Below are positions 1 through 54,194 of a stretch of DNA of 64,000 nucleotides, in pieces. This DNA is from an uncultured Bifidobacteriaceae bacterium (GTDB lineage: Bacteria; Acidobacteriota; Vicinamibacteria; Vicinamibacterales; JAMQPK01). The stretch lies in the NCBI GenBank assembly GCA_964356125.1, contig CAYHHH010000002.1, positions 12,755 to 76,754 on the forward strand, read 5' to 3'. The notes below the pieces were generated by a model. It was not told the DNA's origin, ran no database searches, and worked only from the letters and a program-made list of their open reading frames with translations. A program made the translations under genes and the position numbers. The stretch's first letter is position 1. Each line of letters opens with the position of its first letter.

Positions 1-1643
1 CCTGGATTCTTCGATGCCAGGTCGTCGATGATCATGTGTGGCACCCAGGACGTCTCGCCCGTCGCCGAACGCTTCTGCTCGAACCACGCCAGGCCCCAGC
101 CATGCGCTTCGAGGCTCGCGACGACGTCGTTCAACCCGTCGCCGTTCAGATCGGCCACGCGCAGCTCGCCACCGCCCGGACTCGCACCTGCGCGCGGCCA
201 TCGGCCGAACGCGACCGGATGATAGGGCCACGGACTGTCGACTGTCGACTGTCGACTGTTGACTGTCGACTGAGCCGGATGTTCCCACCATCCGTACGGA
301 GTGACGACATCCACGCGGCCGTCACCGTTGATATCACCCGCGCCAAGACCGTGCTGCGCGGCGACGGTGTACCCGGGCCCCGAGACGGGGCGGACCGTCC
401 ATGGGGACGTCGGATCGGCGGCGTTGACCGCTGCCACCGACACCATCCCGCCGTTGAGCACAACCGCATCCGGCGCACCGTCACCGGTGACGTCGTGGAA
501 TGCCACCACTTCGGCTGTGTTGGCAAAGGCGGGATGGCGATCCCACCTGCGCAGCTCCTTTCCCGGATTCACGTACATCACGAAGCTGCGCCCTTCCGAC
601 ACGACGACGTCGGGGAATCCATCGCCTGAGTAGTCGTGCGCGATGTTCATTGCGCCAGCGGCGTACTCGGCGCCAGGGTTGAAGATCCGGCTCACGTAGA
701 TCTCTCGCGACACGCGATAGTCGGGCCCGAGGAAATAGTGCGGCCCGGCAACGACGTCGAGCACGCCATCGCGGTTCACGTCGGCGGCGGTCGCGGACCA
801 GGCGTAATAGAAGTCGTTCAGCCGCTGCAGCCGGAACGCCGCGCCCGTTTGCTCATCGGTAAACACGCGGCGTCCGAGATCTTTGGTTTCAATCGATCGG
901 TATCGGACTTCCGTCGTCCCGCCGACGTACAGTCCTACTCGGCCGTAACGCGCGACGTGATCGTCGACGCGTCCGCTCGCCACGCCGGCTTCCGGTCCGT
1001 CGTTGAGCCACGAACGCAGGATGTTGGCGTCGAGGATCGACTCGAGCGTGTTCCATTCGCCCGGCCGAAACACGTATTCCGGCGGCGTGTACGGCGACCG
1101 CTCTGGCGGGCCGCCGCGTCCGGCAGCACCCGCGCCGCGTCCAGGACCGCCACGTCCCAGACCACCACGCCCCGGACCATCGGGTGCCCCTTGAGGCTGC
1201 GGAGGTGCGAGCGCGCGGACCGTGCCGCCGCCGCGCTCGAGCGGCTCCTTCGTGCGGAGGCGTCCCTGCGCGTCGAGCGTCACGGCGAACGCGCCAGGCG
1301 TGTCGGAGATCGAGACGAACACGCCCTTGTATCCATCCGCGGTCTTCTCGAGCCGCAGCACCAAGCCGGCTTGACACCCGGCCGCGCAGCGGAACGATGC
1401 CGCCATCTGCACGTCCTGCAAGGGTTTATTGAAGAGCAGCCATCCGCCATCCGGCGAGGACGGGGTGGCAGTCACCTCGCCGTTCTGCGCCGTCCAACTG
1501 GCGGCGCCGAGCTGCTCGGTGTCGGAAAGCGACGATCCGGCGAACGTCCAGTCAGGAACGAAATTCCTGTTCGCGTGCGATGCATGTTCCGTCGCCGCGG
1601 CGCAGAGGAGGGTCATCAGGGCCAATCGGATCAGGCGAGACAT
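1..1643 (-). CDS. Exported DUF1080 (3-keto-disaccharide-hydrolase-like) + FG-GAP/VCBS repeat protein; C-terminus runs off the window start (paralogue 1 of 3)
   Basis: Absent from the ORF track because it has no stop in the window. My reverse-strand translation from ATG 1643-1641 gives MSRLIRLALMTLLCAAATEHASHANRNFVPDWTF... It stays open to nt 3 and is collinear with ORFs 27577..29550 and 29551..31626 (DINGDGRVDVV, WWEHP, GLAWFEQKR). Confidence 0.85.
   Translation of the reverse strand, partial: MSRLIRLALMTLLCAAATEHASHANRNFVPDWTFAGSSLSDTEQLGAASWTAQNGEVTATPSSPDGGWLLFNKPLQDVQMAASFRCAAGCQAGLVLRLEKTADGYKGVFVSISDTPGAFAVTLDAQGRLRTKEPLERGGGTVRALAPPQPQGAPDGPGRGGLGRGGPGRGAGAAGRGGPPERSPYTPPEYVFRPGEWNTLESILDANILRSWLNDGPEAGVASGRVDDHVARYGRVGLYVGGTTEVRYRSIETKDLGRRVFTDEQTGAAFRLQRLNDFYYAWSATAADVNRDGVLDVVAGPHYFLGPDYRVSREIYVSRIFNPGAEYAAGAMNIAHDYSGDGFPDVVVSEGRSFVMYVNPGKELRRWDRHPAFANTAEVVAFHDVTGDGAPDAVVLNGGMVSVAAVNAADPTSPWTVRPVSGPGYTVAAQHGLGAGDINGDGRVDVVTPYGWWEHPAQSTVNSRQSTVDSPWPYHPVAFGRWPRAGASPGGGELRVADLNGDGLNDVVASLEAHGWGLAWFEQKRSATGETSWVPHMIIDDLASKNP
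233..274 (-). repeat. Heptanucleotide tandem array (GACTGTC x ~6) inside the CDS; encodes AQSTVNSRQSTVDS
   Basis: Direct reading: GACTGTC GACTGTC GACTGTC GACTGTT GACTGTC GACTGAG. It is in frame on the minus strand, between WWEHP and PWPYHP. Confidence 0.9.
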
Positions 1644-1781: not shown

Positions 1782-4109
1782 ATGTTCCAGAACACTCGGC
1801 GGTTCCGCCAGTCGCTCGTCGTCATCCTCGGGCTATCGGCCGGGATGGCCGCGGTCGCGACCGGTCTCGCGCAGTCGTCCACGGGCAAGTGGTGGACGGG
1901 ATACGGCAACGGCCCCGATAACTCGCGCTATTTCGCATCCCGGCAGATCAACAAATCCAACGTCAGTCAGCTGCAGGTGGCGTGGACCTACCCCTATGGC
2001 GACACGAGCGGCAACCCGCTCGTCGTCCGCGGCGTGATCTACGGCCGGGGCCGCAACGGCTCCATCGTCGCTGTTGACGCGAAAAATGGCAAGGAGTTGT
2101 GGGTCCGCGAGAACATGAACGGCATGAGCAGCCGCGGCATGATGTACTGGGAAAGCCGCGACGGCCGCGATCAGCGCCTGATCTTCCCGATGAACAGCCT
2201 GCTGCAGCAGCTGGACGCGAAGACAGGGAAGTCGGTCATGTCGTTCGGCATCAACGGAGCCGTCGACTTGAGGGTGGGCATCGACGGACGCGACCCGGAA
2301 ACGATCGGGAATATCCAGTCGCAGACTCCCGGTGAAGTGTTCGAGAACCTGATCATTGTCGGCAGCGCCCCGGGTGAAGGCTACATGTCGCCGCCGGGCG
2401 ACATTCGCGCCTACGACGCCCTCACCGGCAAGCTCGTCTGGACCTTCCACACGGTCCCGCGTCCAGGCGAGTTCGGCTACGAAACGTGGCCGAAAGACGC
2501 GTGGAAGTACGTCGGCGGCACCAACAACTGGGGCGAAATGACGGTCGACACCCGCCGCGGGATCGCATACGTCCCGCTCGGATCAGCCACTTACGACTAT
2601 TACGGCGCCGACCGCATCGGCGCCAACCTGTTCGGCTCGTCGATCGTGGCGCTCAATGCGCGCACAGGCACGCGTCTGTGGCACTTTCAGATGGCCCACC
2701 ACGATCTCTGGGACTTCGACAACAATGCTGCGCCGCAACTGACGACGATCCGCCACAACGGACGCAATCGGGATGTCGTCGCCGTGGCCGGCAAGACCGG
2801 CTGGCTCTACGTATTCGATCGCGTAACGGGCGAGCCGATTTGGCCAATTGAAGAGCGGCCGGTACCCCAGACCGACATGCCGGGCGAACAGACCTGGCCC
2901 ACGCAGCCGTACCCGACCAATCCGCCGCCCTTTGCGAAGCAATCGTTCGGCGTTGACGACATTAATCCGTACCTCGAACCGGCTGAGTACGAGGCATTCA
3001 AGAAACGCGTGCTCGCCGCGAACAACAAAGGGCTGTTCACGCCGATCAACCATACCGACACCGTTCACATTCCAGGCAGCAACGGCGGCGCGCTGTTCGG
3101 CGGCACCGCAGCAGAGCCGAATACCGGTGCTGTGTACGTGATCACTCAGGACAATCCTGGCATGCTCCGCCTCCTCACAACCGCCGAGATGGCGGCGCGC
3201 GCCGGCGGCTTCGGGCCGCCCGGTCAGCTCGTCTACCAGCAGCACTGCCAGCAGTGTCACGGTGCAGATCGTCTCGGAACAGGTGACGGCGTGCCGCTTG
3301 TCTACGCGGACGCCGATCCGGCGAACAATATTGCCGCCGGCGCGTCGCGTTTCAGTGCGGTGGCGATCCGCGACATTCTCGAGACAGGCCGGGGCCGCAT
3401 GCCTGCGTTCCCGCATCTCAGCGCCGCCGACGCGGACATCCTGATCAGGTATCTCACCGCGGTGCCGGGCCCGGGGCGCGGTGCCGGTGGGGGATTCGGC
3501 CGCGGCGCAGGACCGGTCGCATCGGGCGCGCCACCCGCGCTGATTGCCGGATCCGGTTCCGTGTGGACGCGTCCGGACCCTCCAGGTGGACGCGGCCGCG
3601 GCGCCCCGCCGCCGTATCCCGAAGGGGTTCCTCAAACCGAGCGGTTCGTGATCAACGAATACGGAACGATCGGCGACCGCATGAAGCCGCCGTTCACGAC
3701 GATCGTCAAATACGACTTGAACGTACCCGCCATCAAGTGGCGCATCGGTTTCGGCGACGACCCTGCGCTCATCGGCCGTGGCGTCACGGGTACGGGCGTC
3801 ACTCAGATGCGCACCAGCATCATCGTCACGGAATCGGGTCTTGTCTTCGGCGCCGGGCGCGATAACCACATTCGCGCGTGGGACAGCGACACGGGCGCCC
3901 AACTTTGGTCGTCGCGGTTTGGCGGCAATTTCTTGGGCTCCCCAGCGATGTACGAGATGGACGGCAAGCAGTATCTGCTGGTGCCTGCCGCGAGCACGGC
4001 AGGCGGCCGGGGCGCCGGTGCTGGCGTGCCGCCGACACCAGGCGGGAGCCCGGCGACCGCTCCTCCCGCGCCCGGGCCGATGGGCTGGGTCGCCTACGCG
4101 GTGCCATGA
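1782..4109 (+). CDS. PQQ-type beta-propeller dehydrogenase (glucose/quinate-like) with an internally inserted cytochrome c domain
   Basis: 775-aa ORF with GAAGGAG upstream. Signal-like N-terminus MFQNTRRFRQSLVVILGLSAGMAAVATGLAQS. Quinoprotein N-terminal signature WTGYGNGPDNSRYFASRQINKSNVSQLQVAWTY. CQQCH at codons 489-493 (nt 3246-3260). Propeller-like blades resume after the heme domain. Confidence 0.85.
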   Translation: MFQNTRRFRQSLVVILGLSAGMAAVATGLAQSSTGKWWTGYGNGPDNSRYFASRQINKSNVSQLQVAWTYPYGDTSGNPLVVRGVIYGRGRNGSIVAVDAKNGKELWVRENMNGMSSRGMMYWESRDGRDQRLIFPMNSLLQQLDAKTGKSVMSFGINGAVDLRVGIDGRDPETIGNIQSQTPGEVFENLIIVGSAPGEGYMSPPGDIRAYDALTGKLVWTFHTVPRPGEFGYETWPKDAWKYVGGTNNWGEMTVDTRRGIAYVPLGSATYDYYGADRIGANLFGSSIVALNARTGTRLWHFQMAHHDLWDFDNNAAPQLTTIRHNGRNRDVVAVAGKTGWLYVFDRVTGEPIWPIEERPVPQTDMPGEQTWPTQPYPTNPPPFAKQSFGVDDINPYLEPAEYEAFKKRVLAANNKGLFTPINHTDTVHIPGSNGGALFGGTAAEPNTGAVYVITQDNPGMLRLLTTAEMAARAGGFGPPGQLVYQQHCQQCHGADRLGTGDGVPLVYADADPANNIAAGASRFSAVAIRDILETGRGRMPAFPHLSAADADILIRYLTAVPGPGRGAGGGFGRGAGPVASGAPPALIAGSGSVWTRPDPPGGRGRGAPPPYPEGVPQTERFVINEYGTIGDRMKPPFTTIVKYDLNVPAIKWRIGFGDDPALIGRGVTGTGVTQMRTSIIVTESGLVFGAGRDNHIRAWDSDTGAQLWSSRFGGNFLGSPAMYEMDGKQYLLVPAASTAGGRGAGAGVPPTPGGSPATAPPAPGPMGWVAYAVP

Positions 4110-11360: not shown

Positions 11361-11415
11361 ACGCCGCGGCGACGGGTTCTCGCGCGACGGATTCGCGGTA
11401 ATCTCGCGTGACTTT

Positions 11416-13062: not shown

Positions 13063-13079
13063 GGAGGATCGTGAAAAAG

Positions 13080-14984: not shown

Positions 14985-15013
14985 ACGGCACGCGACGGGT
15001 TTGGAGGGAGCGC

Positions 15014-16687: not shown

Positions 16688-16708
16688 GCCCGGATTCTGG
16701 AGGGGACT

Positions 16709-17584: not shown

Positions 17585-17598
17585 AGGAGAACCTGGTT

Positions 17599-18774: not shown

Positions 18775-18785
18775 TTGACTGCGCC

Positions 18786-20834: not shown

Positions 20835-20839
20835 CGCTC

Positions 20840-23800
20840 TTAGAAAATCACTCGAACCCCGAGTCGAAGGTTTCGTTCGTCGTATTCGCGGCCAGGATTT
20901 GCGGTGAAAGTAATCTGCCCGAAATCGATGGCGTTGACGTTCGTGCCAGGATTGGTCCAGTGCGGCGTGTTCGTCACGTTCAGAGCCTCAAGGCGAACCT
21001 GGACCGAGACGGACCGTGAGAACCGGAACGTCCGAAACAGACTGGCGTCGAGGTTGGCGTATCCGGGCCCACGGTATCCATTCGCTTTGGATGTGCCGAA
21101 GCGCGCCGCAGTGACGGCGGCAAACGACGTCGTATCGAACCAGGGTCTGCCGGGTCCAACTCCGCCCAGCACGTTGAACGCCTTGACTTCGTCGGCGCGC
21201 TGGGCGCTGCCCGGTGCGTTCAACGAAGCTCCGCTGGCGGTCATGGTCATGGTCGAACCGCTGAAGGCCGTGAAATACGCGTTGAGCTGCCAGCCTCCGA
21301 CAATAGCGGCGGCTGCACCGTCGGTCAGATAGCGCTTGCCTGCGCCGAAGGGCAATTCATACGAGGCTGAGAGGTCCAGCTTGTTCGGAGACACGGTAGA
21401 AGCCGGACCCTCATTGAGATATCGGTACTCCGGGATCAGGATGCCTGTGGCCCACGCGTCTGTCCCTTTTGCCCTCGCGTACGCGGCAGTGAAGGCCAAC
21501 CCCTCGGAGAAGCGGCGGTTCACACTCACTTGAAGTGAGTCATAGTCGACCCTTCCGAGGGGATCGAGGAAGTTGAAGTTCGCGGTCGTGCCGAGGGCCC
21601 GGAAGAACGGCTGACTGGCGGCACCGCCACCAATAGTCCCATAGTTGCGATTCGTCGAACGGACCATGTCGCGCTGGCGGTTCCCCGCGTATCCGACCTG
21701 GACGCTCATATTTCTGGAGAACGACTTCTGCGCGGTCACGTTGAACCCCGTGATGGTTCCCCGAATGTAATTGTCGGGGGCCGTCGTGACCCCTGCGCCA
21801 GCTGGCAAGGCCAGCGAACCGGAGCTGTAATCTGGAATGGGCGAGACGCGATAGCCGGTCTCCAGCGTGCCTGCCGGCTGAAACGAGTTCAGGCCAGCCT
21901 GATTGATCGTGATGGACGCGGGATAGGTGTAGGTCGCACCGCGGTACATGTGGTCGTTCTGCGGATTCCGCGAGTATCCGGCGCGGATGACGAAGGATTC
22001 GAATGGACGGTATGCGATGCCCAGACGAGGGGTGAACAGATCCTTCTGAACCCCCACGCCGCACGTGTCGCTGTTGCCGGCGACGCCGCACATCAGCACG
22101 CGGTTGGTCGCGAGGTCGAAATGCTCGACACCACGGTCTGCCCGAACCGGCACCGGGTAGTATTCCCACCGCAGACCGAACGAGGCGGTCAGTTTCTGCC
22201 CAATCTGCCACTGGTCGCGCACGTAGAAACCCATTTCGCGCTCGCGCATCGTCACGGGCCGTTCAGGTGCACAGTTGTCGGCAACGACGCATGGCGGCAC
22301 CTGGGCGTTGCTCATGTTGCCCCCGATCTGCCCCAGCAGGAAGTCGGCCAATGCGTTATACGAATTCGCCGCCGGGCCTCCATTCAGCGAGGTCGCGATT
22401 CCGGTGAATGACATGGAGGTCAGCGGACTGATCTCGTAGTGATTCATGTGCTGCCAGTGAAAGTCGCCGCCGAACTTCACGTTGTGGTTGCCCCTGGTCC
22501 AGCCAAGGTTGGCAACCATCTGGTACTGACCGTCGTTATAGTCGAGGACCGAGGAGCTGAACCCGTTGTTCCCGAGCGGCTGAGTGCCGCCCGACGTGCC
22601 GCCCCGCGATGTAAATCCGGTGATCTCCATCTGGGGCAGCGCCCAGTCCCTGGCCTGGCAGGCGTTCGGAATGCCCATGAGATCCGCCCAGCACTGTTGC
22701 ACCCCATTGGGTTGCTGATAGGTGTGTGGTGTTGTCGCTCCACCCACCACATCCATCACGAGGTTGGGAGTCAGCGTCATCGTCGCTGCCAGTGAATAGC
22801 TGAAGATCTTGGCGTTGAGATCGGTGCCCAGACTCAAGGGATTGTCGTCGCCGTAGAGGCCCGCGGAATTCATATCGTCGTGCAGGCCGCTGATCCGCGC
22901 GTTGACGTTGAGACGGTTCGTCGGCGCCCACGTGATCTTCGAATCAATCTTGTAGAAGAGCGACGTGAACGGTGGCGTCGACACGTAGTTATTGACGTTG
23001 CCTGCCGTTTGGGGCGCCGGCAGATAGGCCAGCAGGCGCTGCGCCACCGGGCTGAGGCGGTTCGAGGGAATGAAATTGCACCCCGCGAACCTGGGATCGC
23101 TGGTGGACGTCACGCCGGGGCAGTTCGCGAAGGCAAACGGCGTCCGGCCGGTGCCGTTCGGGTTGCCTGTCAACGGGTCATAGATCGCGACACCGGTGCT
23201 GGAAAAGTTTCCAGTCCTGAACTCCGTCGGGGGCAGCGAGAGCAGCAGAGCGGACGATCCGACGAAGGGCCCGCCAACCGCCCTCGAATCCGTCGTCTCG
23301 AGACTGAAGAAGTAGAAAAGCTTATTCGGTTTGATCGGCCCCCCGATCGTGCCCCCGTAGATGTTTTTTGTCCCCTTCGGCTTCTCGCTGGTGGCCGGCA
23401 GAAAGTAATTCCTCGAGCGGAGGTTCGCGTGCTCGAAGTATTCGAATGCCGAACCGCGCAGCGAATTCGTGCCGCTCTTGACCTGCACGTTCACGGCGGC
23501 GCCACCGGCCATTCCCTGGTCGGCCTCAAAGTTGCTCGTCACGATGTTCACGGTTTCGATCGCTTCGATGGCGGGGCTATACGCCTGAAGGAACGGAATC
23601 CACTGATTGGTTATCGACATGCCGTCGAGGCGGAAGGCCGTATTCGTATTCGGTTGCCCGTTCACCGACACACTCATCGACCGTGACGGGTTGTTGATGC
23701 CACCGGTCTGGAAATACGACGGCTGCGCGACACCGGGAGTGAGCGCCAGCAGGCTCTGGTAGCTCCGGCCGTTAATCGGGAGATTCTCGAGTGCCTGTGC

Positions 23801-24250
23801 CGTTGTCACCGACTGCAACGCCGCGCTGTCGGCTTGCAGGATCGCCGCCTGGCCCGTCACCACAACGGATTCTTCGAGGGTTCCCACCGCGAGCCTCGCA
23901 TCGACGCGGACGATGGCGCCAATGTTGACGGTGATGTCACGGCTCGAAAATGTCCGGAAGCCGGGCAACGTCACGACAACGTCATAGGTGCCCGGCGAGA
24001 GATTGGGAAAGGAATAGGCGCCATTCACCGGTGTCGTCTGGTCGCGCGTCTGATTCGTTTCCCTCTGCGTGATGGTGACCGTGGCTCCCGGGACGATCGC
24101 TCCGGTTTCGTCCAGCACGTTGCCCACCAAGGATCCGTACAACGCCTGTGCGCTGGCGTTGGCGGCGGAGAAGACCATTAATCCTGCGACCAGTGCATGG
24201 CCAAGCCAGGCCCAGCAACCTGTCGATGCGGTGATGTGACGGGTCATCAT
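20840..24250 (-). CDS. TonB-dependent outer-membrane receptor with N-terminal carboxypeptidase-regulatory-like domain
   Basis: 1136 aa. ...SAANASAQALYGSLVGNVLDETGAIVPGATVTITQRETN. C-terminal ...LGVRVIF. SD GGAGGAG upstream. Confidence 0.9.
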   Translation of the reverse strand: MMTRHITASTGCWAWLGHALVAGLMVFSAANASAQALYGSLVGNVLDETGAIVPGATVTITQRETNQTRDQTTPVNGAYSFPNLSPGTYDVVVTLPGFRTFSSRDITVNIGAIVRVDARLAVGTLEESVVVTGQAAILQADSAALQSVTTAQALENLPINGRSYQSLLALTPGVAQPSYFQTGGINNPSRSMSVSVNGQPNTNTAFRLDGMSITNQWIPFLQAYSPAIEAIETVNIVTSNFEADQGMAGGAAVNVQVKSGTNSLRGSAFEYFEHANLRSRNYFLPATSEKPKGTKNIYGGTIGGPIKPNKLFYFFSLETTDSRAVGGPFVGSSALLLSLPPTEFRTGNFSSTGVAIYDPLTGNPNGTGRTPFAFANCPGVTSTSDPRFAGCNFIPSNRLSPVAQRLLAYLPAPQTAGNVNNYVSTPPFTSLFYKIDSKITWAPTNRLNVNARISGLHDDMNSAGLYGDDNPLSLGTDLNAKIFSYSLAATMTLTPNLVMDVVGGATTPHTYQQPNGVQQCWADLMGIPNACQARDWALPQMEITGFTSRGGTSGGTQPLGNNGFSSSVLDYNDGQYQMVANLGWTRGNHNVKFGGDFHWQHMNHYEISPLTSMSFTGIATSLNGGPAANSYNALADFLLGQIGGNMSNAQVPPCVVADNCAPERPVTMREREMGFYVRDQWQIGQKLTASFGLRWEYYPVPVRADRGVEHFDLATNRVLMCGVAGNSDTCGVGVQKDLFTPRLGIAYRPFESFVIRAGYSRNPQNDHMYRGATYTYPASITINQAGLNSFQPAGTLETGYRVSPIPDYSSGSLALPAGAGVTTAPDNYIRGTITGFNVTAQKSFSRNMSVQVGYAGNRQRDMVRSTNRNYGTIGGGAASQPFFRALGTTANFNFLDPLGRVDYDSLQVSVNRRFSEGLAFTAAYARAKGTDAWATGILIPEYRYLNEGPASTVSPNKLDLSASYELPFGAGKRYLTDGAAAAIVGGWQLNAYFTAFSGSTMTMTASGASLNAPGSAQRADEVKAFNVLGGVGPGRPWFDTTSFAAVTAARFGTSKANGYRGPGYANLDASLFRTFRFSRSVSVQVRLEALNVTNTPHWTNPGTNVNAIDFGQITFTANPGREYDERNLRLGVRVIF

Positions 24251-25652: not shown

Positions 25653-27602
25653 ATGAAGACATCAAAGCATCGCGCGCTGAGCGCAGTCGTGTACGCGTCG
25701 GTCCTCTTCGCGACGAGCGCGTTCGCGCAATCCGAGAGCGCCGGCGTGAATCAGTACTTCAACAACTGCGCCTCGTGCCATGAGAGCAACGAGCCAGGAC
25801 ATCAGGCGCCGTCCACCGCCGTGCTCAAGCGGATGACGCCTGAACGGATTCTCGAAGTGATGACGACCGGCTCGATGCGAACCGCCGCCGCCGCCGTCAG
25901 CGACCAGGACAAGCGCCTCATCGCGGAATGGGTGGCCGGGCGGAAGCTCGACACCGATCTGGTTGGCGCCGCCGAGAAGATGTCGAACGTCTGTGCCAGT
26001 CATGCGCCGGTGCGCGAATCGAACACGCCGGCATGGAACGGCTGGGGTGTTGATTACCGGAACTCGCGCTTCCAATCGGGCGCGGCCGCCGGCTTGTCTC
26101 CCGGACAAGTGTCGCGCCTGCAGCTGAAGTGGGCCTTCGGATTTCCGGGCGCCACGGCGCTGTACGGCCAGACGGTGTATGACGGACGGCTGTATGTGAC
26201 GTCCAATGCCGGGTACGTCTACTCGCTCGACGCCGAGACCGGCTGTCTGCACTGGGGGTTCCGCGCGCAATCGGCGGTGAGGAGCGGGTTCACGATTGGC
26301 CGCCTCAGCAAGACCGATCCGCGGCTCGCCATTTTCTTCGGCGATATTCATGGCACGGCATACGCACTGTCGGCAAGCACCGGCGAGGAGATCTGGAAGA
26401 CGCTTACCGATCCGCATCCGCTCGCTCGGATTACCGGAACGCCGGTGCTGTTCGAGGGACGGCTGTTGGTGCCGGTCGCCTCGCTCGAAGAGCCGGAGTC
26501 GGGACAGGCCGATTACGCGTGTTGCACCTTCCGCGGGTACATGTCGGCGTTGGATTCGGCAACCGGCCGTCAGATCTGGAAGACATACACGATTCCGGAC
26601 GTGCCGAAGGTCGTTGGCAAGAACTCGCGCGGCAAAAACATGCTGGAGCCGGCCGGCGCCGGCGTCTGGGCGACGCCGACGATCGACGTGAAACGCCGCG
26701 CTCTGTACGTGACCACCGGCAACGCCTTCTCGGGCACGCCCAAAACAGCCAACGCCGTGATGGCGATGAACATCGACACGGGCAAAGTACTGTGGTCGAT
26801 GCAGGCGCTCCCATTCGATACGTGGCACAACGGCTGTGTGCAGAACATTCCCGGTGGAGCATTTCCCGCTCGGAGTGGCGGCGGCGGACGTGGCGGCCGC
26901 GCCGGCGGACCTGGCATTCCCTATCCGCCTGAAAACTGCCCCGCGGTGCTCGGACCCGACTGGGACTTTGCAGCGCCTCCGGCGCTCGCGACAACCAGCG
27001 ACGGCCGGGACATTCTCATCGCGCCGCAGAAGCAGGGGCTCGTGTGGGCCGTCAATCCGGAAAACGGCCAGGTATTGTGGAAGCAGGATGTGGCGCGCGA
27101 AATCGCCGGCGGCCGCGGAGAGACGCTCTTCGGCGCTGCGGTAGACAGCGAGAAAGCCTACTTCGGTCTGATCAGCAGCGCGCACCTCGCGCTCGATCTC
27201 AAGACTGGGGAAGAGGTCTGGTACGTACCACTGATTCCGCCACCGGGCCGTGAGAACCAGCGCGGGGTCGTCGGCGCCGTCACGCTGATTCCCGGCGTGC
27301 TCTTATCGGGCGCGCGCGATGGGATGATTCGCGCGGCGTCGTCGCGAACCGGTCAACTCCTGTGGCAGTTCGACAGTGCGCAGGAATTCACGACCGTCAA
27401 TGGCGTGCAGGCGCGCGGTGGTTCCGCCGCCTCCGGCGGCCCCATCGTCGCGAACGGGATGGTGTTCATCGGCTCGGGCTATCCCGGCTTCCAGGGGGGA
27501 CAGCCCGGAAATGTGCTGCTTGCCTTCGCGCCGGCGGTGCGGCTCGACGTGCATGCCGACGAGTTGAAGCGGAAAGCTAGCGACGCCGACCCCAGAAAAT
27601 GA
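25653..27602 (+). CDS. Quinohemoprotein-like dehydrogenase: N-terminal cytochrome c domain + PQQ-type beta-propeller (PVA-dehydrogenase-like layout)
   Basis: 649 aa with signal MKTSKHRALSAVVYASVLFATSAFAQ. CASCH heme motif near the N-terminus. Repeated propeller blades (LYVTSNAGYVYSLDAETG, GMVFIGSGYPG). Confidence 0.8.
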   Translation: MKTSKHRALSAVVYASVLFATSAFAQSESAGVNQYFNNCASCHESNEPGHQAPSTAVLKRMTPERILEVMTTGSMRTAAAAVSDQDKRLIAEWVAGRKLDTDLVGAAEKMSNVCASHAPVRESNTPAWNGWGVDYRNSRFQSGAAAGLSPGQVSRLQLKWAFGFPGATALYGQTVYDGRLYVTSNAGYVYSLDAETGCLHWGFRAQSAVRSGFTIGRLSKTDPRLAIFFGDIHGTAYALSASTGEEIWKTLTDPHPLARITGTPVLFEGRLLVPVASLEEPESGQADYACCTFRGYMSALDSATGRQIWKTYTIPDVPKVVGKNSRGKNMLEPAGAGVWATPTIDVKRRALYVTTGNAFSGTPKTANAVMAMNIDTGKVLWSMQALPFDTWHNGCVQNIPGGAFPARSGGGGRGGRAGGPGIPYPPENCPAVLGPDWDFAAPPALATTSDGRDILIAPQKQGLVWAVNPENGQVLWKQDVAREIAGGRGETLFGAAVDSEKAYFGLISSAHLALDLKTGEEVWYVPLIPPPGRENQRGVVGAVTLIPGVLLSGARDGMIRAASSRTGQLLWQFDSAQEFTTVNGVQARGGSAASGGPIVANGMVFIGSGYPGFQGGQPGNVLLAFAPAVRLDVHADELKRKASDADPRK

Positions 27603-29550
27603 ACGTGCCGCGCACGCTCGACGTGACGATGTCCATCGCGCCGTCTTTGTTGAGGTCCGCCGCCGAGAATTGCGAGCCGACGCCAGACCGATTGTGAATC
27701 AGCTCGGGCACGAACTCCGCGCCGCCCGGCGCCTTCCGATTTCGCACGGTGCGAAACCAATACAGCGCCGGAGTGCCGTAAGGATCGGGGTCGGTATAGC
27801 TCTCCAGGTGGGAAAAGTAACGCTTGCCCGTGACGTAGTCAGTTACCCCGTCGCCGTCGATGTCGGCTGCCAGCGACGCGTGCATTTCCGACAGCGTCAC
27901 GTTGCCGGCGTTCTTCGTCGAGTAGTCGTCGATGATCATGTGCCGCTCGAACGAGATGCGCCCATCCGTGTCGCGTTTCTGCTCGAACCACGCCAGGCCG
28001 AATCCGTGAGCGTTCAGCCCGGTGACCACATCGTTGAGCGTGTCGCCGTTGACGTCATACACGCAGAGCTCGGCGCCTCCGGCGCCCTCCGCTCGGCCCC
28101 ACCGCCCGAACGCCTCGGGATGGTAGATCCACGCTTCAGACTCTGGACTCTGGACTGTCGACTCTGGACTTTGGACTTTCGACTTTGGACTAGCCGAAGG
28201 CTGTTCCCACCAGCCAGCCGTCTGGAGAATGTCCACGCGCCCGTCGCCGTTGATGTCGCCGGCACCCAGGCTGTGACCGTATGCCATTCCCGGCGCCGAA
28301 ATCGTGTGCACCACCCACGGGCGAGTTGGATCGGCAGGATCCGGCTGCGCGTACGCCAGCGTTCCCTTCGCCGTGCCGGTGCCGGTCCCGAAGATCGCTT
28401 CGGGCTTACCGTCGCCGTCCACATCCCGCATGAGCACCAGCTCGCTGTTGCCCTGCGGCACAGCCGGGTACTTCGCCCAGCGCCGGCGCTCGCCTTTCGG
28501 ATTCACGTACATAAATAAAGGACGGTTCTCGCCGGACACGACGTCGGGCCAGCCGTCGCCGGTGAAGTCGAAGACGAAGTGAAACCCGGCGCGCGGAAAC
28601 TGATCGCTCGGATTGACAGTCGGCGCGACATAGATCTCGCGTCGCGACGTGTACTCGGGCCCCAGGTAGTAGTACGGGCCAGCGACGACGTCGAGGACGC
28701 CGTCGCGGTTGAGATCACCGACGCCGGCGCCCCAGGTGTAGAAGAATTCGTCGAGCTGCTGCATGCGGAACCGTGTGGATGTCTGCTCGGGTGGTACGAC
28801 CCGCACGTTGAGATCTTTGAATGAGACGTCCTTGAAGTGCACCTCGCCGCTGCCCACGAAGAGCGCGACGGGCCCGTAGCCGCTGGCGCGGTCGTCGGTC
28901 GTTGCAGCGGGAATGTCGACCCCCTGATTCAGCGTCGATCGAATGATATCGGCGTCGAGCGCGACACTCAGCGTGTTCCACTCGCCCGCGCGCGGGCCGG
29001 GCTGCGGAGGCATCAGCGGAGCGAGCGGTACAGGCAAGGTCATCGCCGGACCGCCCGTGCCCGCGCCGCCGCGCGCTGGACCACCGCTCCGGGCACCTGC
29101 CGCAGGCGGCGGTGGCGCGGAGCGGATGAACGCCGCCACGCCGCGCAGCGGTTCGCGCGCCGTCTCGCGGCCTGCCGCGTCGAGCGTGACGCGAAATGCC
29201 GCGAGCTCACCGGCATTGAGCGCGAGATACACGCCGGTCATACCCTCAGCGGTTTTTTCGGCGCGGAAGAGCACCCCTGTGCGGCACTCCCCGGCGCAAC
29301 GGAACCGCGTGAAGAAGTTCAGATCCTGATACGACGCATCGAGCACGAGCCAGCCGCCGCCGGGGCCCGACGCGGTTCCGATCAGCTCGCCGTTCTGTGC
29401 CTTCCACTGTGAGGAGCCGAGCGTATGCCAGCCGGCGAGCGTGGACCCGCTGAAGGTCGAATCCGGCCGGAAATCATGTGCCGGTCCCTGCGCGCCGATC
29501 CACGCGGCGGCCAGTGTCACGGCGGCGACGATGACGACTAGTCGTCTCAT
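27577..29550 (-). CDS. Exported DUF1080 + FG-GAP/VCBS repeat protein (paralogue 2)
   Basis: 657 aa with signal MRRLVVIVAAVTLAAAWIGAQ. DUF1080-like LAGWHTLGSSQWKAQNGELIG...GVLFRAEK. FG-GAP-like DINGDGRVD and DVNGDTLND. Its ATG directly abuts the stop of the upstream paralogue. Confidence 0.9.
   Translation of the reverse strand: MRRLVVIVAAVTLAAAWIGAQGPAHDFRPDSTFSGSTLAGWHTLGSSQWKAQNGELIGTASGPGGGWLVLDASYQDLNFFTRFRCAGECRTGVLFRAEKTAEGMTGVYLALNAGELAAFRVTLDAAGRETAREPLRGVAAFIRSAPPPPAAGARSGGPARGGAGTGGPAMTLPVPLAPLMPPQPGPRAGEWNTLSVALDADIIRSTLNQGVDIPAATTDDRASGYGPVALFVGSGEVHFKDVSFKDLNVRVVPPEQTSTRFRMQQLDEFFYTWGAGVGDLNRDGVLDVVAGPYYYLGPEYTSRREIYVAPTVNPSDQFPRAGFHFVFDFTGDGWPDVVSGENRPLFMYVNPKGERRRWAKYPAVPQGNSELVLMRDVDGDGKPEAIFGTGTGTAKGTLAYAQPDPADPTRPWVVHTISAPGMAYGHSLGAGDINGDGRVDILQTAGWWEQPSASPKSKVQSPESTVQSPESEAWIYHPEAFGRWGRAEGAGGAELCVYDVNGDTLNDVVTGLNAHGFGLAWFEQKRDTDGRISFERHMIIDDYSTKNAGNVTLSEMHASLAADIDGDGVTDYVTGKRYFSHLESYTDPDPYGTPALYWFRTVRNRKAPGGAEFVPELIHNRSGVGSQFSAADLNKDGAMDIVTSSVRGTFIFWGRRR
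28139..28194 (-). repeat. Heptanucleotide tandem array (GACTCTG/GACTGTC/GACTTTG x ~8) inside the CDS
   Basis: Direct reading with unit boundaries 28139, 28146, 28153, 28160, 28167, 28174, 28181 and 28188. Encodes SPKSKVQSPESTVQSPESE between WWEQP and WIYHP. Confidence 0.9.
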
Positions 29551-31551
29551 CTATTTCCTTGTCCGCGGCTGGCCGAGAAACGCGAATGCGCCCAGCTCGC
29601 CCGCCGTCACCAGGTCCATCACGCCGTCCTTGTTCAGATCCACGGCGAGCACCTGCGAGCCTGCGCCAGACTGGTTGTGCACCAGCTCGGGCACGAATTC
29701 GGCGCCGCCCGGCGCGTTCTTGTTGCGAACCGTGCGGTAGACGTACAGCACCGGTGCGCCGTAGGGATCGGGATCGGCGTAACTCTCGTTGTGCGAGAAG
29801 AACCGTTTGCCGATGACGAAGTCGGTCGTACCGTCGCCGTTCATGTCGGCGCACGTCGAGCCGTGGGGTTCGGAGAAGACCACGCCGCCTGCGTTCTTCG
29901 TGGCGAAGTTGTCCGAAATCATGTGCCGCACGAAGGAGATCTGTCCGCCGGCATCGCGCTTCTGCTCGAACCACGCGAGCCCGAACACGTGCGCCTGCAG
30001 CGACGTCACGACGTCGTTGAGTTTGTCGCCGTTGACGTCGTACACGCACATCTCGGCGCCACCGGGCGCGCCGCGGCCGTTTTGACGCCCGAAGGCCTGG
30101 GGATGGTAGATCCACGGACTCTCGCCTTTCGACTGTCGACTTGCGCCTTGCGACTGTGCGGGCTGTTCCCACCAGCCGTACACGTTCAGGATGTCGACGC
30201 GTCCATCGCCGTTGACGTCGCCCGCGCCGATGCCATGCGCCGCGTAGGTGCCGGGCTCGCCAACTTGCGTCGACAGCCACGGCCCGGTGGGGTTGGCTGG
30301 ATCGGGCTTCGCCCATCGCACGGCGCCCGCGCTCGCGTACACCAGGTCGGGCTTGCCGTCCGCATCGACGTCCTTCATCACCGACACTTCCGAGACGTTG
30401 GGGGCAGGCGGCACGACGCCCGCGTACGAGTCCCATCGTCTCGGCTCGCCCTTCGGATTCACGTACACCCGGCTGCCCGACGTCGACGCGAGCAGCACGT
30501 CGGGCCACCCGTCTCCGGTAAAGTCGCCGGCGAACTCGAGCCAGTTCGACGAGAAGTTCGTCGAGGGGTTGGTGGAGAGCGCCATGTAGAACTCGCGCAC
30601 CTTCGTGAAATCGGGCCCCAGGAAAATGAACGGTCCCGACACGATGTCGATGTTGCCGTCGCGATCGAAATCCGCGGCGCCCGACGCGAAGGAATAGTAA
30701 AAAGGCGTGAGCCGCAACATGCGGTAGTTGGGCGATAGCTCTTCTTTGACGACTCGTTTGAGGCTCAGATCGCGATACGACACATCGCGGAAATGCACCG
30801 CACCCGAGCCGCCGACATAGATGGCTATAGGGCCGAACGTGCCGAGATCATCGTCGGCCGCGCCGCCGCCGTTGGCGGAAGTGTTCACCCACGGCCGCAG
30901 AATGTTCGCGTCGATCACGACGTCGACATCATTCCAGTCGTTCGGTTTGAGTGCGGATGGCGCCATCAGATCGGGGAGCGTTGCGCCGGATGGCAGCGCA
31001 CCGCGCCCGCGTCCGCCGACCTGCGCGCCGGCGGCGCCCGGCGCCCCGCGTCCGGCCCCGCGACCTGCACCACCGCCACGCGCGGCGGCTGCGGCCGCGG
31101 CTTCAGCCGCCGATGGTGCAACGCGAATCAACCCGCCGCCTGCACGAAGACGCTCTCGTGTCAGGATCGTGCCGTTCGCGTCGAGCGTGACGGCGTAGCC
31201 GCCGACCTCGCCTTCGTCCAGTGAGAGGAACACGCCTTTCATTCCCGTCGCCGTCTTCTCCGCGCGCAGCAGCACACCTGTCCGGCACTCGCCCACGCAC
31301 TTGAAGTCGGCGCCGAACTCGACATCCTGAAACGATGTGTCGAGCACGAGCCAGCCGCCGTCTGCCGACTTCGGTGTGCCAACCAATTCGCCGTCGATCG
31401 CTTTCCACTCGGCGGCGCCGAGCACATGCCAGCCGGCGAGCGTGCTTCCCTTGAACGTCCAGTCTGGAACGAACGTGCCGCGCGTGCCGCGAAGAGGCAC
31501 ACCTGTGAGCGCGCCGAGTATCGCGACGAGGCCGAGTAATCGACGCGTCAT
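29551..31551 (-). CDS. Exported DUF1080 + FG-GAP/VCBS repeat protein (paralogue 3)
   Basis: Start trimmed to ATG 31551 (MTRRLLGLVAILGALTGVPLRG) so it does not overlap gene 31589..32596. Collinear with paralogues 1 and 2. Confidence 0.9.
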   Translation of the reverse strand: MTRRLLGLVAILGALTGVPLRGTRGTFVPDWTFKGSTLAGWHVLGAAEWKAIDGELVGTPKSADGGWLVLDTSFQDVEFGADFKCVGECRTGVLLRAEKTATGMKGVFLSLDEGEVGGYAVTLDANGTILTRERLRAGGGLIRVAPSAAEAAAAAAARGGGAGRGAGRGAPGAAGAQVGGRGRGALPSGATLPDLMAPSALKPNDWNDVDVVIDANILRPWVNTSANGGGAADDDLGTFGPIAIYVGGSGAVHFRDVSYRDLSLKRVVKEELSPNYRMLRLTPFYYSFASGAADFDRDGNIDIVSGPFIFLGPDFTKVREFYMALSTNPSTNFSSNWLEFAGDFTGDGWPDVLLASTSGSRVYVNPKGEPRRWDSYAGVVPPAPNVSEVSVMKDVDADGKPDLVYASAGAVRWAKPDPANPTGPWLSTQVGEPGTYAAHGIGAGDVNGDGRVDILNVYGWWEQPAQSQGASRQSKGESPWIYHPQAFGRQNGRGAPGGAEMCVYDVNGDKLNDVVTSLQAHVFGLAWFEQKRDAGGQISFVRHMISDNFATKNAGGVVFSEPHGSTCADMNGDGTTDFVIGKRFFSHNESYADPDPYGAPVLYVYRTVRNKNAPGGAEFVPELVHNQSGAGSQVLAVDLNKDGVMDLVTAGELGAFAFLGQPRTRK
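30117..30158 (-). repeat. Degenerate heptanucleotide array (GACTCTC GCCTTTC GACTGTC GACTTGC GCCTTGC GACTGTG) inside the CDS
   Basis: Direct reading. Encodes AQSQGASRQSKGES at the same WWEQP...WIYHP loop. Confidence 0.75.
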
Positions 31552-31588
31552 GTGTGCCTCCACAAAAAGTGACGAACGCGGCCGTGCG

Positions 31589-52442: not shown

Positions 52443-54194
52443 ATGAACACGCGGTTCTGGGTTCTTGGTTCGGCGGTTCTGGGGTCCTGGTTCTGGGTTC
52501 ATGGTGCGAGTGTGTTCGCACAACTCGGTCCGGCGCGGGCCCGCACGCAAACGGCCGCGTACGAGTTGACCGATGGCCGCACGATCGAGGGCATCCCTCT
52601 CAATCACGAGCGCGCCGACGATGTGCAGCTGCGCACGGCGGCGGGCCCGGTTCTCCTGCTCAGGAAATCGGGCGATCGGTATCGCGTGGTCACCTCCACG
52701 GTCGACTGGCCGAGCTACGACGGCTCGACAACCGGTAATCGCTATACCGCGCTGACCCGGATCGACAAATCGAATGTCGGACGGCTGGCGCCCAGGTGGA
52801 TCTACGCGATACCGACATCAGTGCGTCTGCAAACGACGCCGGTGGTCGTGGGCGGCTTGATGTATGTCACCAGCGCCAACGAATGCTATGCGCTCGACGC
52901 CGGCAACGGCCGCGAGGTCTGGCGCTTTCAGCGGCCGCGCACGAAAGGCCTCGTCGGCAACGCGGCCGGCGGTATCAATCGCGGCGTTGCGATCGCGGGC
53001 GAGCGTCTGTTCATGGTCACCGACCACGCGCATCTGATCGCGCTGAATCGGTTTACGGGCGAGCTGCTGTGGGACATGGTGATGGCCGACTGGCAGCAGA
53101 ACTACAACGCCACGTCGGCGCCCTTGATTGTCGGAGATTTGGTGATCGCCGGCACCGCCGGCGGCGAGCAGGGCGTGCGCGGGTTTCTCGCGGCCTACGA
53201 TCAGGCGACCGGACGCGAAGCGTGGCGATTCTGGACGGTGCCGAAGCCAGGTGAACCTGGATCGGAAACATGGAAGGGCACAGGCATCGAACATCCGGGC
53301 GGCGTCACCTGGATGACCGGCGTGTACGATCCAGCGCTCGACCTCGTCTACTGGACGACCGGCAATCCCAGTCCGGATTACAACGGCGACGAGCGATTGG
53401 GCGACAATCTGTACGCGAGCTCGGTCGTCGCGCTCGATGCGCGCAGCGGCCGCTTGAAGTGGCACTTCCAGTTCACGCCACACAACGTGTGGGATTGGGA
53501 CGCACAGCAGCCCACCGTGCTCGTCGATACGACATGGGAAGGGCGCCCGCGAAAGCTTCTTGTTCAGGCGAGCCGCAACGGGTTCTTCTACGTGCTCGAC
53601 CGCACCGACGGGAAATTTCTGCTCGCGAAGCCGTTCGTCAACAACCTGACCTGGGCGCGCGAAATCGGATCGGGCGGCCGGCCGGTGCTGGTGCCGGGGC
53701 AGGAGCCCAGTCCCGAAGGCACGCGCGTCTGTCCGTCGGCGCACGGCGCGGCGAACTGGTACTCGACGTCATACAGCCCGCAGACCGGGCTGTATTACGT
53801 GCAGACCCTCGAGAACTGCAATGTGTTCGTCAAGTTCGTCAGCGAATGGGCCGCGGGAAACGCGTACTGGGGCGGCTCCACGCGGCAGGCCGAAGATGCA
53901 CCGAATCAGAAAATTCTTCGCGCCATCGACGTGAAGACCGGGAAGATCGCGTGGGAACTGCCGCAGACGGGCCCCGGGGCCGCGCGCGGCGGAACGCTGG
54001 CCACGGCGAGCGGCCTGCTGTTCTTCTGCGACGACCAGGATCGATTTGCCGCCGTCGACGCGGCAACCGGAAAACCGCTCTGGCAATTCGGGATGAACAG
54101 CGTGTGGCGGGCGTCACCGATGACGTACGAGTTCGACGGAAGGCAGCACATCGCCATCGCATCGGGGTCGAACATCATCGCGTTTGGTTTGTGA
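52443..54194 (+). CDS. PQQ-type quinoprotein alcohol-dehydrogenase-family beta-propeller (no heme domain)
   Basis: 583 aa. NRYTALTRIDKSNVGRLAPRWIY..LQTTPVVVGGLMYVTSANECYALDAGNGREVWRF and later blades are typical of the methanol/ethanol DH family. The N-terminal hydrophobic core is encoded by a heptamer array. Confidence 0.85.
   Translation: MNTRFWVLGSAVLGSWFWVHGASVFAQLGPARARTQTAAYELTDGRTIEGIPLNHERADDVQLRTAAGPVLLLRKSGDRYRVVTSTVDWPSYDGSTTGNRYTALTRIDKSNVGRLAPRWIYAIPTSVRLQTTPVVVGGLMYVTSANECYALDAGNGREVWRFQRPRTKGLVGNAAGGINRGVAIAGERLFMVTDHAHLIALNRFTGELLWDMVMADWQQNYNATSAPLIVGDLVIAGTAGGEQGVRGFLAAYDQATGREAWRFWTVPKPGEPGSETWKGTGIEHPGGVTWMTGVYDPALDLVYWTTGNPSPDYNGDERLGDNLYASSVVALDARSGRLKWHFQFTPHNVWDWDAQQPTVLVDTTWEGRPRKLLVQASRNGFFYVLDRTDGKFLLAKPFVNNLTWAREIGSGGRPVLVPGQEPSPEGTRVCPSAHGAANWYSTSYSPQTGLYYVQTLENCNVFVKFVSEWAAGNAYWGGSTRQAEDAPNQKILRAIDVKTGKIAWELPQTGPGAARGGTLATASGLLFFCDDQDRFAAVDAATGKPLWQFGMNSVWRASPMTYEFDGRQHIAIASGSNIIAFGL
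52453..52509 (+). repeat. Heptanucleotide tandem array (GGTTCTG x ~8, one 1-nt interruption)
   Basis: GGTTCTG GGTTCTT GGTTCGG c GGTTCTG GGGTCCT GGTTCTG GGTTCAT GGTGCGA. It lies within codons 4-23 of ORF 52443. Confidence 0.9.

Follow-up and report, generated by a model that had tools for sequence, protein, structure and literature searches.

Does a heptanucleotide repeat inside a coding sequence, shared by three paralogous genes, mark a site of adaptive variation, a genetic switch, or a stretch of unstable DNA in a protein segment that tolerates it? The question is raised by a 64-kb stretch of DNA (64,000 nt, hereafter the window) from a soil Vicinamibacterales acidobacterium, in which a first-pass annotation had noted tandem heptamers in three related genes. 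The longest of these tracts, array 2, lies in the second paralogue.

The translated array of paralogue 2

The features of this gene are as follows.

27577–29550, minus strand: paralogue 2 (P2) gene, 657 aa (Pfam scan, structure model and Foldseek)
28139–28194, minus strand: heptamer array 2, eight units, GACTNTN on the plus strand and NANAGTC on the coding strand
28132–28200, minus strand: whole variable loop of P2, 69 nt, 23 aa, PSASPKSKVQSPESTVQSPESEA, residues 451–473, between GWWEQ and WIYHP

Read directly, positions 28139–28194 comprise GACTCTG GACTCTG GACTGTC GACTCTG GACTTTG GACTTTC GACTTTG GACTAGC, exactly the eight units listed by the first-pass annotation, which on the coding strand become GCTAGTC CAAAGTC GAAAGTC CAAAGTC CAGAGTC GACAGTC CAGAGTC CAGAGTC. 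Tandem Repeats Finder (TRF) recovers both periods over 28139–28191, at 7 nt (7.6 copies, 84% matches, score 64) and at 21 nt (2.5 copies, 90% matches, score 85), and self-identity reaches 68% at lag 7, against 7–27% at lags that are not multiples of seven. All 10 occurrences of the pattern AGTCNNNAGTCNNNAGTC in the window lie inside array 2 or the array at 233–271, and 100 dinucleotide-preserving shuffles gave none. Array 2 is nevertheless imperfect: its units come in five variants, no more than two adjacent ones are identical, and its present slippage rate may therefore be low. An assembly artefact is ruled out by equivalent arrays in independent ENA, JGI and NCBI assemblies, and an Rfam scan of the whole window gave no match at the gathering threshold.

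The array occupies codons 453–471 of the 657-codon gene, about two-thirds of the way in. Translation of the minus-strand ORF 27577..29550 (...GWWEQ-PSASPKSKVQSPESTVQSPESEA-WIYHP...) bears out the earlier proposal that three DNA units make one seven-residue protein repeat, SPKSKVQ/SPESTVQ/SPESEA. The tract has the properties of an in-frame coding VNTR, namely a higher-order unit of 21 nt, a multiple of three, and a variable copy number.

In P2, a helix resembling a signal peptide lies at the N terminus, and the protein further comprises a jelly-roll domain of the 3-keto-disaccharide hydrolase/DUF1080 type and an FG-GAP/VCBS β-propeller; Pfam places an N-terminal PF06439 domain and PF13517/PF01839 repeats in it, all above gathering scores. 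The AlphaFold model has a pLDDT of 89.6 and a pTM of 0.88; Foldseek matches its propeller to those of integrin-α type, YesW and aldos-2-ulose dehydratase, and the protein also to the DUF1080 proteins BT3469 and BDI_1869. Residues 455–461 and 463–470 of the loop fall below a pLDDT of 50, between strands 446–449 and 475–477. By this model, the array-encoded insert is a predicted disordered loop joining two β-strands. Rich in Ser, Gln, Pro, Lys, Glu and Val, it is most likely a tolerated floppy loop rather than a folded functional motif, if neutrality is assumed.

The other two paralogues carry their own arrays in the same loop.

1–1643, minus strand: paralogue 1 (P1) gene, from the Pfam scan, its 3′ end running past the window start
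231–278, minus strand: P1 loop, 48 nt, PAQSTVNSRQSTVDSP, the most regular array
29551–31626, minus strand: paralogue 3 (P3) gene, directly abutting P2, with its ORF listed from a GTG at 31626
30115–30162, minus strand: P3 loop, 48 nt, PAQSQGASRQSKGESP, a degenerate six-unit array

The full-length P1 protein is represented by P0121 (662 aa), and the true start of P3 is likely the ATG at about 31551 (MTRRLLGL...). P2 and P3 share 54% amino acid identity, and P1 is 47–49% identical to either. The P1 array consists of four CAGTCGA units followed by CAGTCAA and CAGTCCG, and its unit GACNGTC is a quasi-palindrome; the P3 array reads CAGTCGC AAGGCGC AAGTCGA CAGTCGA AAGGCGA GAGTCCG, with a lag-7 self-identity of 59%. 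Single-strand DNA folding indicates a significant hairpin for the P1 array (z-scores of −4.0 and −3.2) but not for array 2 (−1.2 and −1.9), and hairpin-driven instability of array 2 was rejected. The P2 loop has 23 residues, compared with 16 in both P1 and P3. It had been described as longer by about eight residues; longer it is, but by exactly seven (21 nt, three heptamers).

Elsewhere in the window lie three unrelated heptamer arrays (4475–4555, 52453–52500 and 62604–62652), whose units differ from the AGTC type. For the one at 52453–52500, in a signal peptide, homologues in the compared loci are at most 57% identical, with alignments that begin after residue 28. Across those loci, period-7 arrays additional to the loop arrays occur in the window only. 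AGTC-type arrays are absent within the 64 kb outside the three paralogue loops, and absent from the first 77 related loci. A search for arrays in other families with the peptide (QSTVDSR)6 gave only 11 weak short-ORF matches, at low power, the family's own loops being themselves unscored. Within 64 kb, the AGTC unit does not behave as a dispersed heptamer family, in which one unit recurs at many, mostly intergenic loci.

Age and variability of the arrays

About 90 of the 120 homologues have a non-repeat loop of 8–9 residues. Sister species at 84–86% identity already possess the P3–P2 tandem pair, with the short non-repeat loops PAKATTEM and PPAGANQGT. Across 11 sister Vicinamibacterales loci, from genomes and metagenome contigs, the P3 loop is PxKATTxM, and every P2 gene present on the contig has a non-repeat loop; P1 orthologues mostly have the 8-residue loop PASGFGGP. 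In a loop-masked neighbour-joining tree, all repeat-coded P2 loops fall inside one clade, in which short loops with no repeat, PAGGNAST and RSPTD among them, occur as well, whereas the array-bearers of the corresponding P3 tree are not grouped, which is compatible with several gains. Sequence comparison shows that the arrays are restricted to the close clade of the window and that the loop ancestrally had 8–9 non-repeat residues. Protein-query scans of metagenome and genome contigs returned no array-bearing loci, and the array-bearing DNA used here was obtained protein by protein instead.

Descent of the arrays from the duplication can be ruled out, since the P2 and P3 orthologues of the sister species and most P1 orthologues lack them; their origin therefore lies much later than the duplication, within one sub-clade. 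The suggestion that the insert expanded after the duplication holds in that the loop of the window is one 7-residue step longer than that of its nearest 16-aa relative, P0004 (PAASPKSTVQSPESEA compared with PSASPKSKVQSPESTVQSPESEA), but not in its premise of an array inherited from the duplication.

Within the clade, turnover is fast. DNA of eight further loci (L158–L165) contains the same xAGTCxx heptamers, and lag-7 identity is 54–76% across all 15 arrays examined. Among P2 proteins clustered at 90% identity or more, loops measure 23, 26 and 27 residues in one cluster and 9, 9, 8 and 30 in another, and a P1 cluster at the same threshold holds ancestral 8-residue loops beside arrays of 17–20. 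A control cluster with no array has a 9-residue loop in all eight members covering it, identical in seven and PPPGAAQGL in P0278. The P2 gene of L164 is 92% identical to that of the window at the nucleotide level, yet its array is restructured (78 nt compared with 69 nt), and the array of L165 contains three 21-nt superunits in tandem, two with the same sequence (AAGTCGAAAGGCGACAGTCCA). Judged from these sequences, the arrays are shown to be hypervariable: proteins that share 90% identity or more differ in array length and in array sequence, all length comparisons being between different metagenomic lineages, with slippage read from the differences between them. Such repeat-number polymorphism among close relatives is characteristic of contingency loci. 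An identical, non-variable insert with no 7-nt periodicity in orthologues would have spoken against the first-pass annotation's variable insert; the orthologous inserts are instead variable and 7-nt periodic.

Loop lengths favour 2 + 7k residues (9, 16, 23 or 30), and so steps of 21 nt: such a length is found in 13 of the 27 array-clade P2 sequences, these being the ones with a scorable loop, five 5-residue members included. Loops of 5, 6, 10, 12, 17, 20, 24, 26 and 27 residues do not fit this series and point to a contribution from other indels or from boundary shifts. For annotation, the length of this DUF1080/FG-GAP propeller loop is unreliable as an orthology character. The arrays do not resemble the variable region of a diversity-generating retroelement, as they vary in how long they are and in how many units they have, and not by A-specific substitution; the window holds no template-like second copy of an array outside the three genes.

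Probable exchange between paralogues

Alignment of the three arrays at the nucleotide level had been proposed as a way of telling shared descent from independent expansion. Shared descent in the three paralogues does not survive the comparison: the genes are 47–54% identical in amino acid sequence, and the arrays arose later, in one sub-clade, and were exchanged between paralogues. The P1, P2 and P3 loops are 75–88% identical in nucleotide sequence, in the same register and with six units, in genes that are about 65% identical.

The most direct case is P0256, which is 94.8% identical to the P2 protein of L160 and 54.6% identical to its P3, but whose loop matches the P3 loop at 15 of 16 residues and the P2 loop at 10 of 16. 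A P3-type loop in a P2 backbone points to exchange between paralogues, and on this sequence evidence at least one P2 allele is shown to carry a P3 loop. Furthermore, P3 has an array in five of the six genomes with a P2 array, compared with none of the 11 without one, and the 3′ end ...CAGTCGA AAGGCGA NAGTCCG is common to the P3 genes of the window and L158 and to the P2 gene of L161. Low-complexity arrays can, as a general matter, resemble each other through convergence.

The arrays might instead have been born de novo in each paralogue, through a lineage-wide bias towards heptamer slippage acting on similar loops, with low complexity making them converge. The lineage does generate heptamer repeats, as the unrelated arrays of the window attest; P3 array-bearers are non-monophyletic, and the P3 array of L163 is built from a different heptamer, CCCAAAG/CCCAGAG. 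Nor is a long gene-conversion tract visible, P2–P3 flank identity over 15–150 nt being equal in array-bearing and array-free genomes. We nonetheless regard separate births as very improbable: in P1 and P3 the array stands in place of the ancestral residues, not between them, with the PA...DSP boundaries, register and six units of P2 type-A arrays; the ancestral P3 and P1 loops have no AGTC proto-repeat from which an array could have grown; and P0256 combines a P3-type loop with a P2 backbone.

The same observations invite an adaptive interpretation, in which the loop is an exposed, hypervariable epitope seen by phages, predators or competitors, and slippage and inter-paralogue conversion diversify it under selection. 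In its favour are the extreme turnover of the loop among proteins that differ by less than 10% overall and are otherwise stable, also in their non-array loops, the modelled position of the loop on the outside of a confident fold, a signal peptide indicated by both sequence and model, the cassette-like swap and the parallel acquisition of arrays by three paralogues. The same pattern would, however, be expected of a loop that tolerates change and is a neutral hotspot of mutation, and the host is a free-living soil bacterium without known antigenic-variation biology; selection on an epitope is, in our view, unlikely. A stronger version, in which the three predicted exported propeller paralogues form a purpose-built diversification site by sharing a slippage-prone cassette and swapping it through gene conversion, is clearly unlikely as well. 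Were it true, a population would hold a repertoire of surface-loop variants, and perhaps of ON/OFF states, with which to escape phages, predators or bacteriocins, and contingency or antigenic variation would extend beyond host-associated pathogens.

A proposed history and known systems

We consider it probable that array 2 is a lineage-specific, slippage-prone heptanucleotide microsatellite, translated within a tolerant disordered loop, filtered by the reading frame and spread by short-patch gene conversion. Its unit is 7 nt long (NANAGTC on the coding strand, with a family consensus of CAGTCGA). A single origin of the arrays is probable, perhaps in situ in P2 from a AGTCAAAGT-like proto-repeat. 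Replication slippage or unequal exchange between heptamers would then have changed array length; changes of one or two units would introduce a stop within 3–64 codons, which would leave steps of three units (21 nt, 7 aa), or combinations that otherwise keep the frame, as the sole changes to persist. We propose that this filtering produced the 21-nt higher-order repeat. Short-patch gene conversion between the flanks GGNTGGTGGGARCARCC and TGGNNNTAYCAYCC, which are near-identical, would later have pasted the array into the same loop of P3 and P1. Array 2 of the window would be an interrupted, partly decayed descendant, lengthened by one 21-nt step compared with its 16-aa relatives.

To our knowledge, the behaviour of only a few coding heptanucleotide repeats has been documented, and neuO is the textbook case. 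This gene of Escherichia coli K1 and phage CUS-3 contains the heptanucleotide (5′-AAGACTC-3′)n in 3–53 repeats and yields full-length protein only at unit counts divisible by three; OFF genotypes make up 66% of genomes, and repeat length is reported to affect catalytic activity (PMC13001214). Array 2 is like neuO in being a tandem 7-nt repeat within an ORF, in which three units encode a 7-residue repeat and copy number varies (in neuO, between strains).

The likeness suggests a phase-variable switch, in which slippage by one or two heptamers would silence the gene through a frameshift (OFF) and restore it again (ON), as happens in neuO with precisely such a unit, and reversible silencing of a predicted exported protein would be advantageous. 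A length of 7 nt is not divisible by three, copy number varies between close relatives, and changes of ±7 and ±14 nt in silico abolish full-length translation, with stops 3–64 codons after the array start and the loss of about 190 C-terminal propeller residues. Against a switch, the tracts are short and interrupted, with 6–13 imperfect units in many variants compared with the long neuO tract of one named unit, and array 2 sits in an internal propeller loop two-thirds into the gene and not at the 5′ end, where the neuO tract lies. No allele is broken at the array among the protein-database cluster members, and truncated ones break elsewhere, although this search for OFF alleles is biased because such databases under-report frameshifted genes. 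With the array common to three paralogues, silencing one would also give little phenotypic switch, and we judge a switch quite improbable.

The microsatellite that we favour has a broader setting, as heptanucleotide repeats are reported to be the most abundant class of long simple sequence repeats (SSRs) in bacteria, with polymerase slippage given as the cause (Mrazek et al. 2007, cited in PMC4692102 and PMC4679880). Heptameric SSRs are described as over-represented in bacteria yet little studied, and include genome-wide families such as Xanthomonas GGGAATC, Nostoc GGGGAYT, the cyanobacterial STRR and Beggiatoaceae TAACTGA (PMC4692102, PMC4679880). Shared features are a 7-nt period, length and sequence differences between close relatives, inverted array pairs and proposed slippage (PMC4692102, PMC4679880), and the window too carries intergenic heptamer arrays. 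The genome-wide families are, however, described there as mostly intergenic, under-represented in coding regions and based on one unit at many loci, whereas the AGTC-type unit is translated and confined, within 64 kb, to one loop of one gene family.

With the simple-sequence contingency loci of Haemophilus and Neisseria, array 2 shares a tract inside an ORF, a unit that is not a multiple of three and copy-number polymorphism. Classical loci of this kind have 1–5-nt units in long perfect tracts, with demonstrated ON/OFF switching in host-adapted pathogens (see also PMC2651432). The arrays described here, in contrast, are imperfect tracts of a 7-nt unit, in which any switching is hypothetical. 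The loops also resemble pilin or Msp-type cassettes in being short variable segments with conserved flanks, swapped between paralogous copies. In those systems, variable regions are driven by gene conversion in multigene families; here, each of the three copies is a full-length gene and none a silent donor cassette, exchange is deduced from one allele and from similarity patterns, and there is no known link to immune or phage evasion.

Taken against these systems, the P2 array is a further real case of a known kind, an unstable coding heptanucleotide repeat. The locus offers a natural series in uncultured soil Acidobacteriota, in which repeat birth, 21-nt stepwise growth, decay and transfer between paralogues are traceable across metagenomes. 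Two questions could be addressed with it: how selection for the reading frame makes a 7-residue protein repeat out of a 7-nt slippage unit, and whether free-living soil bacteria have variation of the contingency type.

A coding heptamer array in a propeller loop

The first-pass annotation had listed eight heptamers at 28139-28194, and the sequence reads exactly as it gave them: GACTCTG GACTCTG GACTGTC GACTCTG GACTTTG GACTTTC GACTTTG GACTAGC (array 2). TRF describes 28139-28191 both with period 7 (7.6 copies, 84% matches) and with period 21 (2.5 copies, 90% matches). All 10 matches of the window to the skeleton AGTCNNNAGTCNNNAGTC lie in array 2 or in the array at 233-271, whereas 100 dinucleotide-preserving shuffles gave none. 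Folding gave no significant single-strand hairpin potential for array 2; array 1, which is quasi-palindromic, does have it. Array 2 is coding and is translated as ...GWWEQ-PSASPKSKVQSPESTVQSPESEA-WIYHP..., and heptamer-coded inserts occupy this same loop in all three DUF1080/FG-GAP paralogues of the window (P1, P2 and P3), which share 47-54% identity:

1..1643: P1 gene, extending beyond the window edge; loop peptide PAQSTVNSRQSTVDSP, coding-strand units (CAGTCGA)n, nearly perfect
27577..29550, minus strand: P2 gene, 657 aa; 23-aa loop peptide, eight units in five variants
28139-28194: array 2, inside the P2 gene
29551..31626: P3 gene, adjoining P2 without a spacer (29551/29550); loop peptide PAQSQGASRQSKGESP, coding-strand array degenerate

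At its 3' end, P2 shares 26 nt (27577-27602) with the 3' end of a convergent gene for a PQQ/cytochrome-c dehydrogenase (25653..27602), an overlap of the same length being kept in relatives (L158 10778-10803, L159 3473-3498).

P2 joins a signal-peptide-like N-terminus to a 3-keto-disaccharide hydrolase/DUF1080 domain and FG-GAP/VCBS repeats. Its AlphaFold model, built with 100 homologues as input, is confident (pLDDT 89.6, pTM 0.88), and the only low-confidence internal stretches are 156-162 and 455-470, the latter being the insert, between strands 446-449 (GWWEQ) and 475-477 (WIYHP). Foldseek relates the protein to FG-GAP-type propellers (integrin alpha, rhamnogalacturonan lyase YesW, aldos-2-ulose dehydratase, fungal lectins) and to DUF1080 jelly rolls (BT3469, BDI_1869, CBM66). 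Among genomes, the closest are MAGs of the Vicinamibacterales (Acidobacteriota), with 84-86% identity at the protein level. L164, a syntenic relative, has genes nearby for PQQ/cytochrome-c dehydrogenases, TonB-dependent-receptor-like barrels, a beta-helix protein and a two-component system, which suggests a carbohydrate uptake and oxidation locus. Read most simply, the P2 array is a mutational hotspot that a floppy loop tolerates, any function of the peptide being putative.

Age and turnover of the arrays

Among 120 homologues, the P2 loop nearly always consists of 8-9 non-repeat residues (PAAGPRSGL, PPAGANQGT and similar), and longer Q/S/T/V/D/K/P-rich loops are found in the closest relatives only. 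The P3-P2 tandem is already present in sister Vicinamibacterales genomes and soil contigs, where P3 loops are of the PAKATTEM type (11 loci) and P2 loops of the PPAGANQGT type wherever the contig includes the loop; most P1 orthologues carry PASGFGGP. A loop-masked NJ tree places every repeat-coded P2 loop in one clade, which also holds members with short non-repeat loops. The arrays are thus younger than the paralogue duplication, and the earlier proposal that the paralogues inherited an array, of which copy 2 then expanded, is unsupported. The first-pass annotation stands as an observation, and its interpretation is supported in part.

Eight further loci (L158-L165) carry xAGTCxx heptamers as in the window, and lag-7 self-identity is 54-76% in 15/15 arrays, against at most 44% at lags that are not multiples of 7. 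Among proteins clustered at 90% identity or more, loop lengths compare as follows:

Loop lengths within protein clusters
Window's P2 cluster: 23, 26 and 27 aa
Another P2 cluster: 9, 9, 8 and 30 aa
P1 cluster: 8 aa (ancestral loops), 17-20 aa (arrays), and an unrelated insertion, LPAEAQGAKAG
Non-array control cluster: 9 aa in 8/8 members that include the loop (seven PAPGANQGL, one PPPGAAQGL)

The LPAEAQGAKAG insertion occurs in P1 orthologues P0125, P0133, P0138, P0269 and P0270, at the site equivalent to window 231-278. Even between the window and the syntenic L164, which are 92% nucleotide-identical across the P2 gene, the array is restructured (78 nt in L164 versus 69 nt). Adaptive diversification of an exposed loop is a less likely reading with which this turnover would be compatible.

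Growth seems to favour steps of 21 nt. The loop equals 'PA' plus whole heptads (9, 16, 23 or 30 residues) in 13 of the 27 array-clade P2 sequences whose loop was scorable; L165 holds three 21-nt superunits in tandem, two of them identical (AAGTCGAAAGGCGACAGTCCA); the loop of the homologue P0004 (PAASPKSTVQSPESEA) plus one 7-aa step gives the window's P2 loop; and in silico, a gain or loss of one or two heptamers brings a stop 3-64 codons later. These observations fit slippage by the 7-nt unit with subsequent selection for an intact frame, a combination that would yield the 21-nt/7-aa higher-order repeat. Lengths off the heptad series (5, 6, 10, 12, 17, 20, 24, 26, 27) show that other indels also contribute. 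The same in silico stops make ON/OFF phase variation of the neuO type mechanically possible, but the tracts are short and interrupted, and a search for OFF alleles, itself a biased test, found none.

Exchange between paralogues and origin

Across different genomes, the 48-nt loops of P1, P2 and P3 are 75-88% identical and share a common register, with six units and PA...(D/A/E)SP boundaries, against about 65% nucleotide identity for the genes around them. In P1 and P3, the array substitutes for ancestral residues and is not inserted among them. P3 arrays are present in 5/6 genomes with a P2 array, versus 0/11 without. The proposed spread between paralogues is supported most directly by P0256, a P2 allele with 94.8% identity to L160-P2 and 54.6% to L160-P3, whose loop, PAKSTVASQQSLVDSP, agrees with that of L160-P3 at 15/16 residues but with that of L160-P2 at only 10/16. 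The proposed route is short-patch gene conversion through the coding flanks GWWEQP and WxYHP, which are nearly identical; no longer conversion tract is visible around the loop.

The L163-P3 loop (L163 5558-5608, peptide PATQSPEPKAQSQTSST) has another heptamer as its unit, CCCAAAG/CCCAGAG x4, which hints at an independent origin of one or more arrays at this site. P2 loops such as that of L002 (GCGAGTCAAAGTACC, PATGASQST) contain a AGTCAAAGT proto-repeat, and 'type B' arrays (window, L163, L164, P0004) retain PxAS... and ...GT/EA ends; speculatively, an array could have been born in situ in P2 from such a loop.

Related repeats and known systems

The window holds other tandem repeats, heptameric except for the last one listed:

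4475-4506 and 4517-4555: inverted pair, (TAGCTGG)x4.6 and (GCTACCG)x5.6; stem about 34 bp, single-strand DNA -23.9 kcal/mol, z -4.7
52453-52500: (GGTTCTG)x6.7, within the first 20 codons (MNTRFWVLGSAVLGSWFWVHG...) of a PQQ-dependent dehydrogenase (52443..54194)
62604-62626 and 62630-62652: inverted pair, (AAGGGGC)x3.3 and (TTGCCCC)x3.3; near-perfect hairpin, -22.1 kcal/mol, z -6.9
50910-50944: 13-nt tandem repeat (GTAGGGCTCGTTC)x2.7, 100% matches, between ORFs ending at 50852/50881 and an ORF starting at 50967

Because its 3' arm ends at the next gene's ATG (4555), the first hairpin could cover the ribosome-binding region of that gene or serve as a terminator. The 62604-62652 hairpin, flanked by convergent ORFs ending at 62602 and 62677, looks like a bidirectional terminator made of 7-nt repeats. 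Given its position, the (GGTTCTG) array encodes the hydrophobic core of the dehydrogenase's signal peptide. As other Acidobacteriota loci carry inverted pairs (L003 1764-1908, CAATGGG/CCATTGC; L008 19481-19574, CGTTCCC/GAACGGG), such 'heptamer-array hairpins' seem recurrent in the phylum; for Xanthomonas, PMC4692102 describes GGGAATC in comparable inverted pairs.

In L164 (86-92% identical), the PQQ gene (window 1782..4109) adjoins the TonB-like receptor gene (window 20840..24250) at L164 18913-19008, so that about 16.7 kb of the window (about 4110-20840) is missing or relocated there; one boundary lies near the 4475-4555 hairpin. An AP_endonuc_2 gene takes P1's place in L164 and L158.

Among the papers searched, none links Vicinamibacter with tandem repeats. 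PMC4692102 and PMC4679880, summarising Mrazek 2007, rank heptameric SSRs first in abundance among the long SSRs of bacteria, with polymerase slippage as their proposed cause. Most heptameric SSRs lie between genes. Mechanistically, the window's locus is not without precedent. The best-studied coding heptanucleotide repeat is neuO (PMC13001214), with which the window's array shares the 7 nt x 3 = 7 aa relation and copy-number polymorphism. Unlike neuO, it lies in an internal loop, has imperfect units, is common to and apparently exchanged among three paralogues, and belongs to a free-living soil acidobacterium. The locus is a well-resolved natural case in which a coding heptamer repeat was probably born, grew in quantised steps and passed between paralogues.
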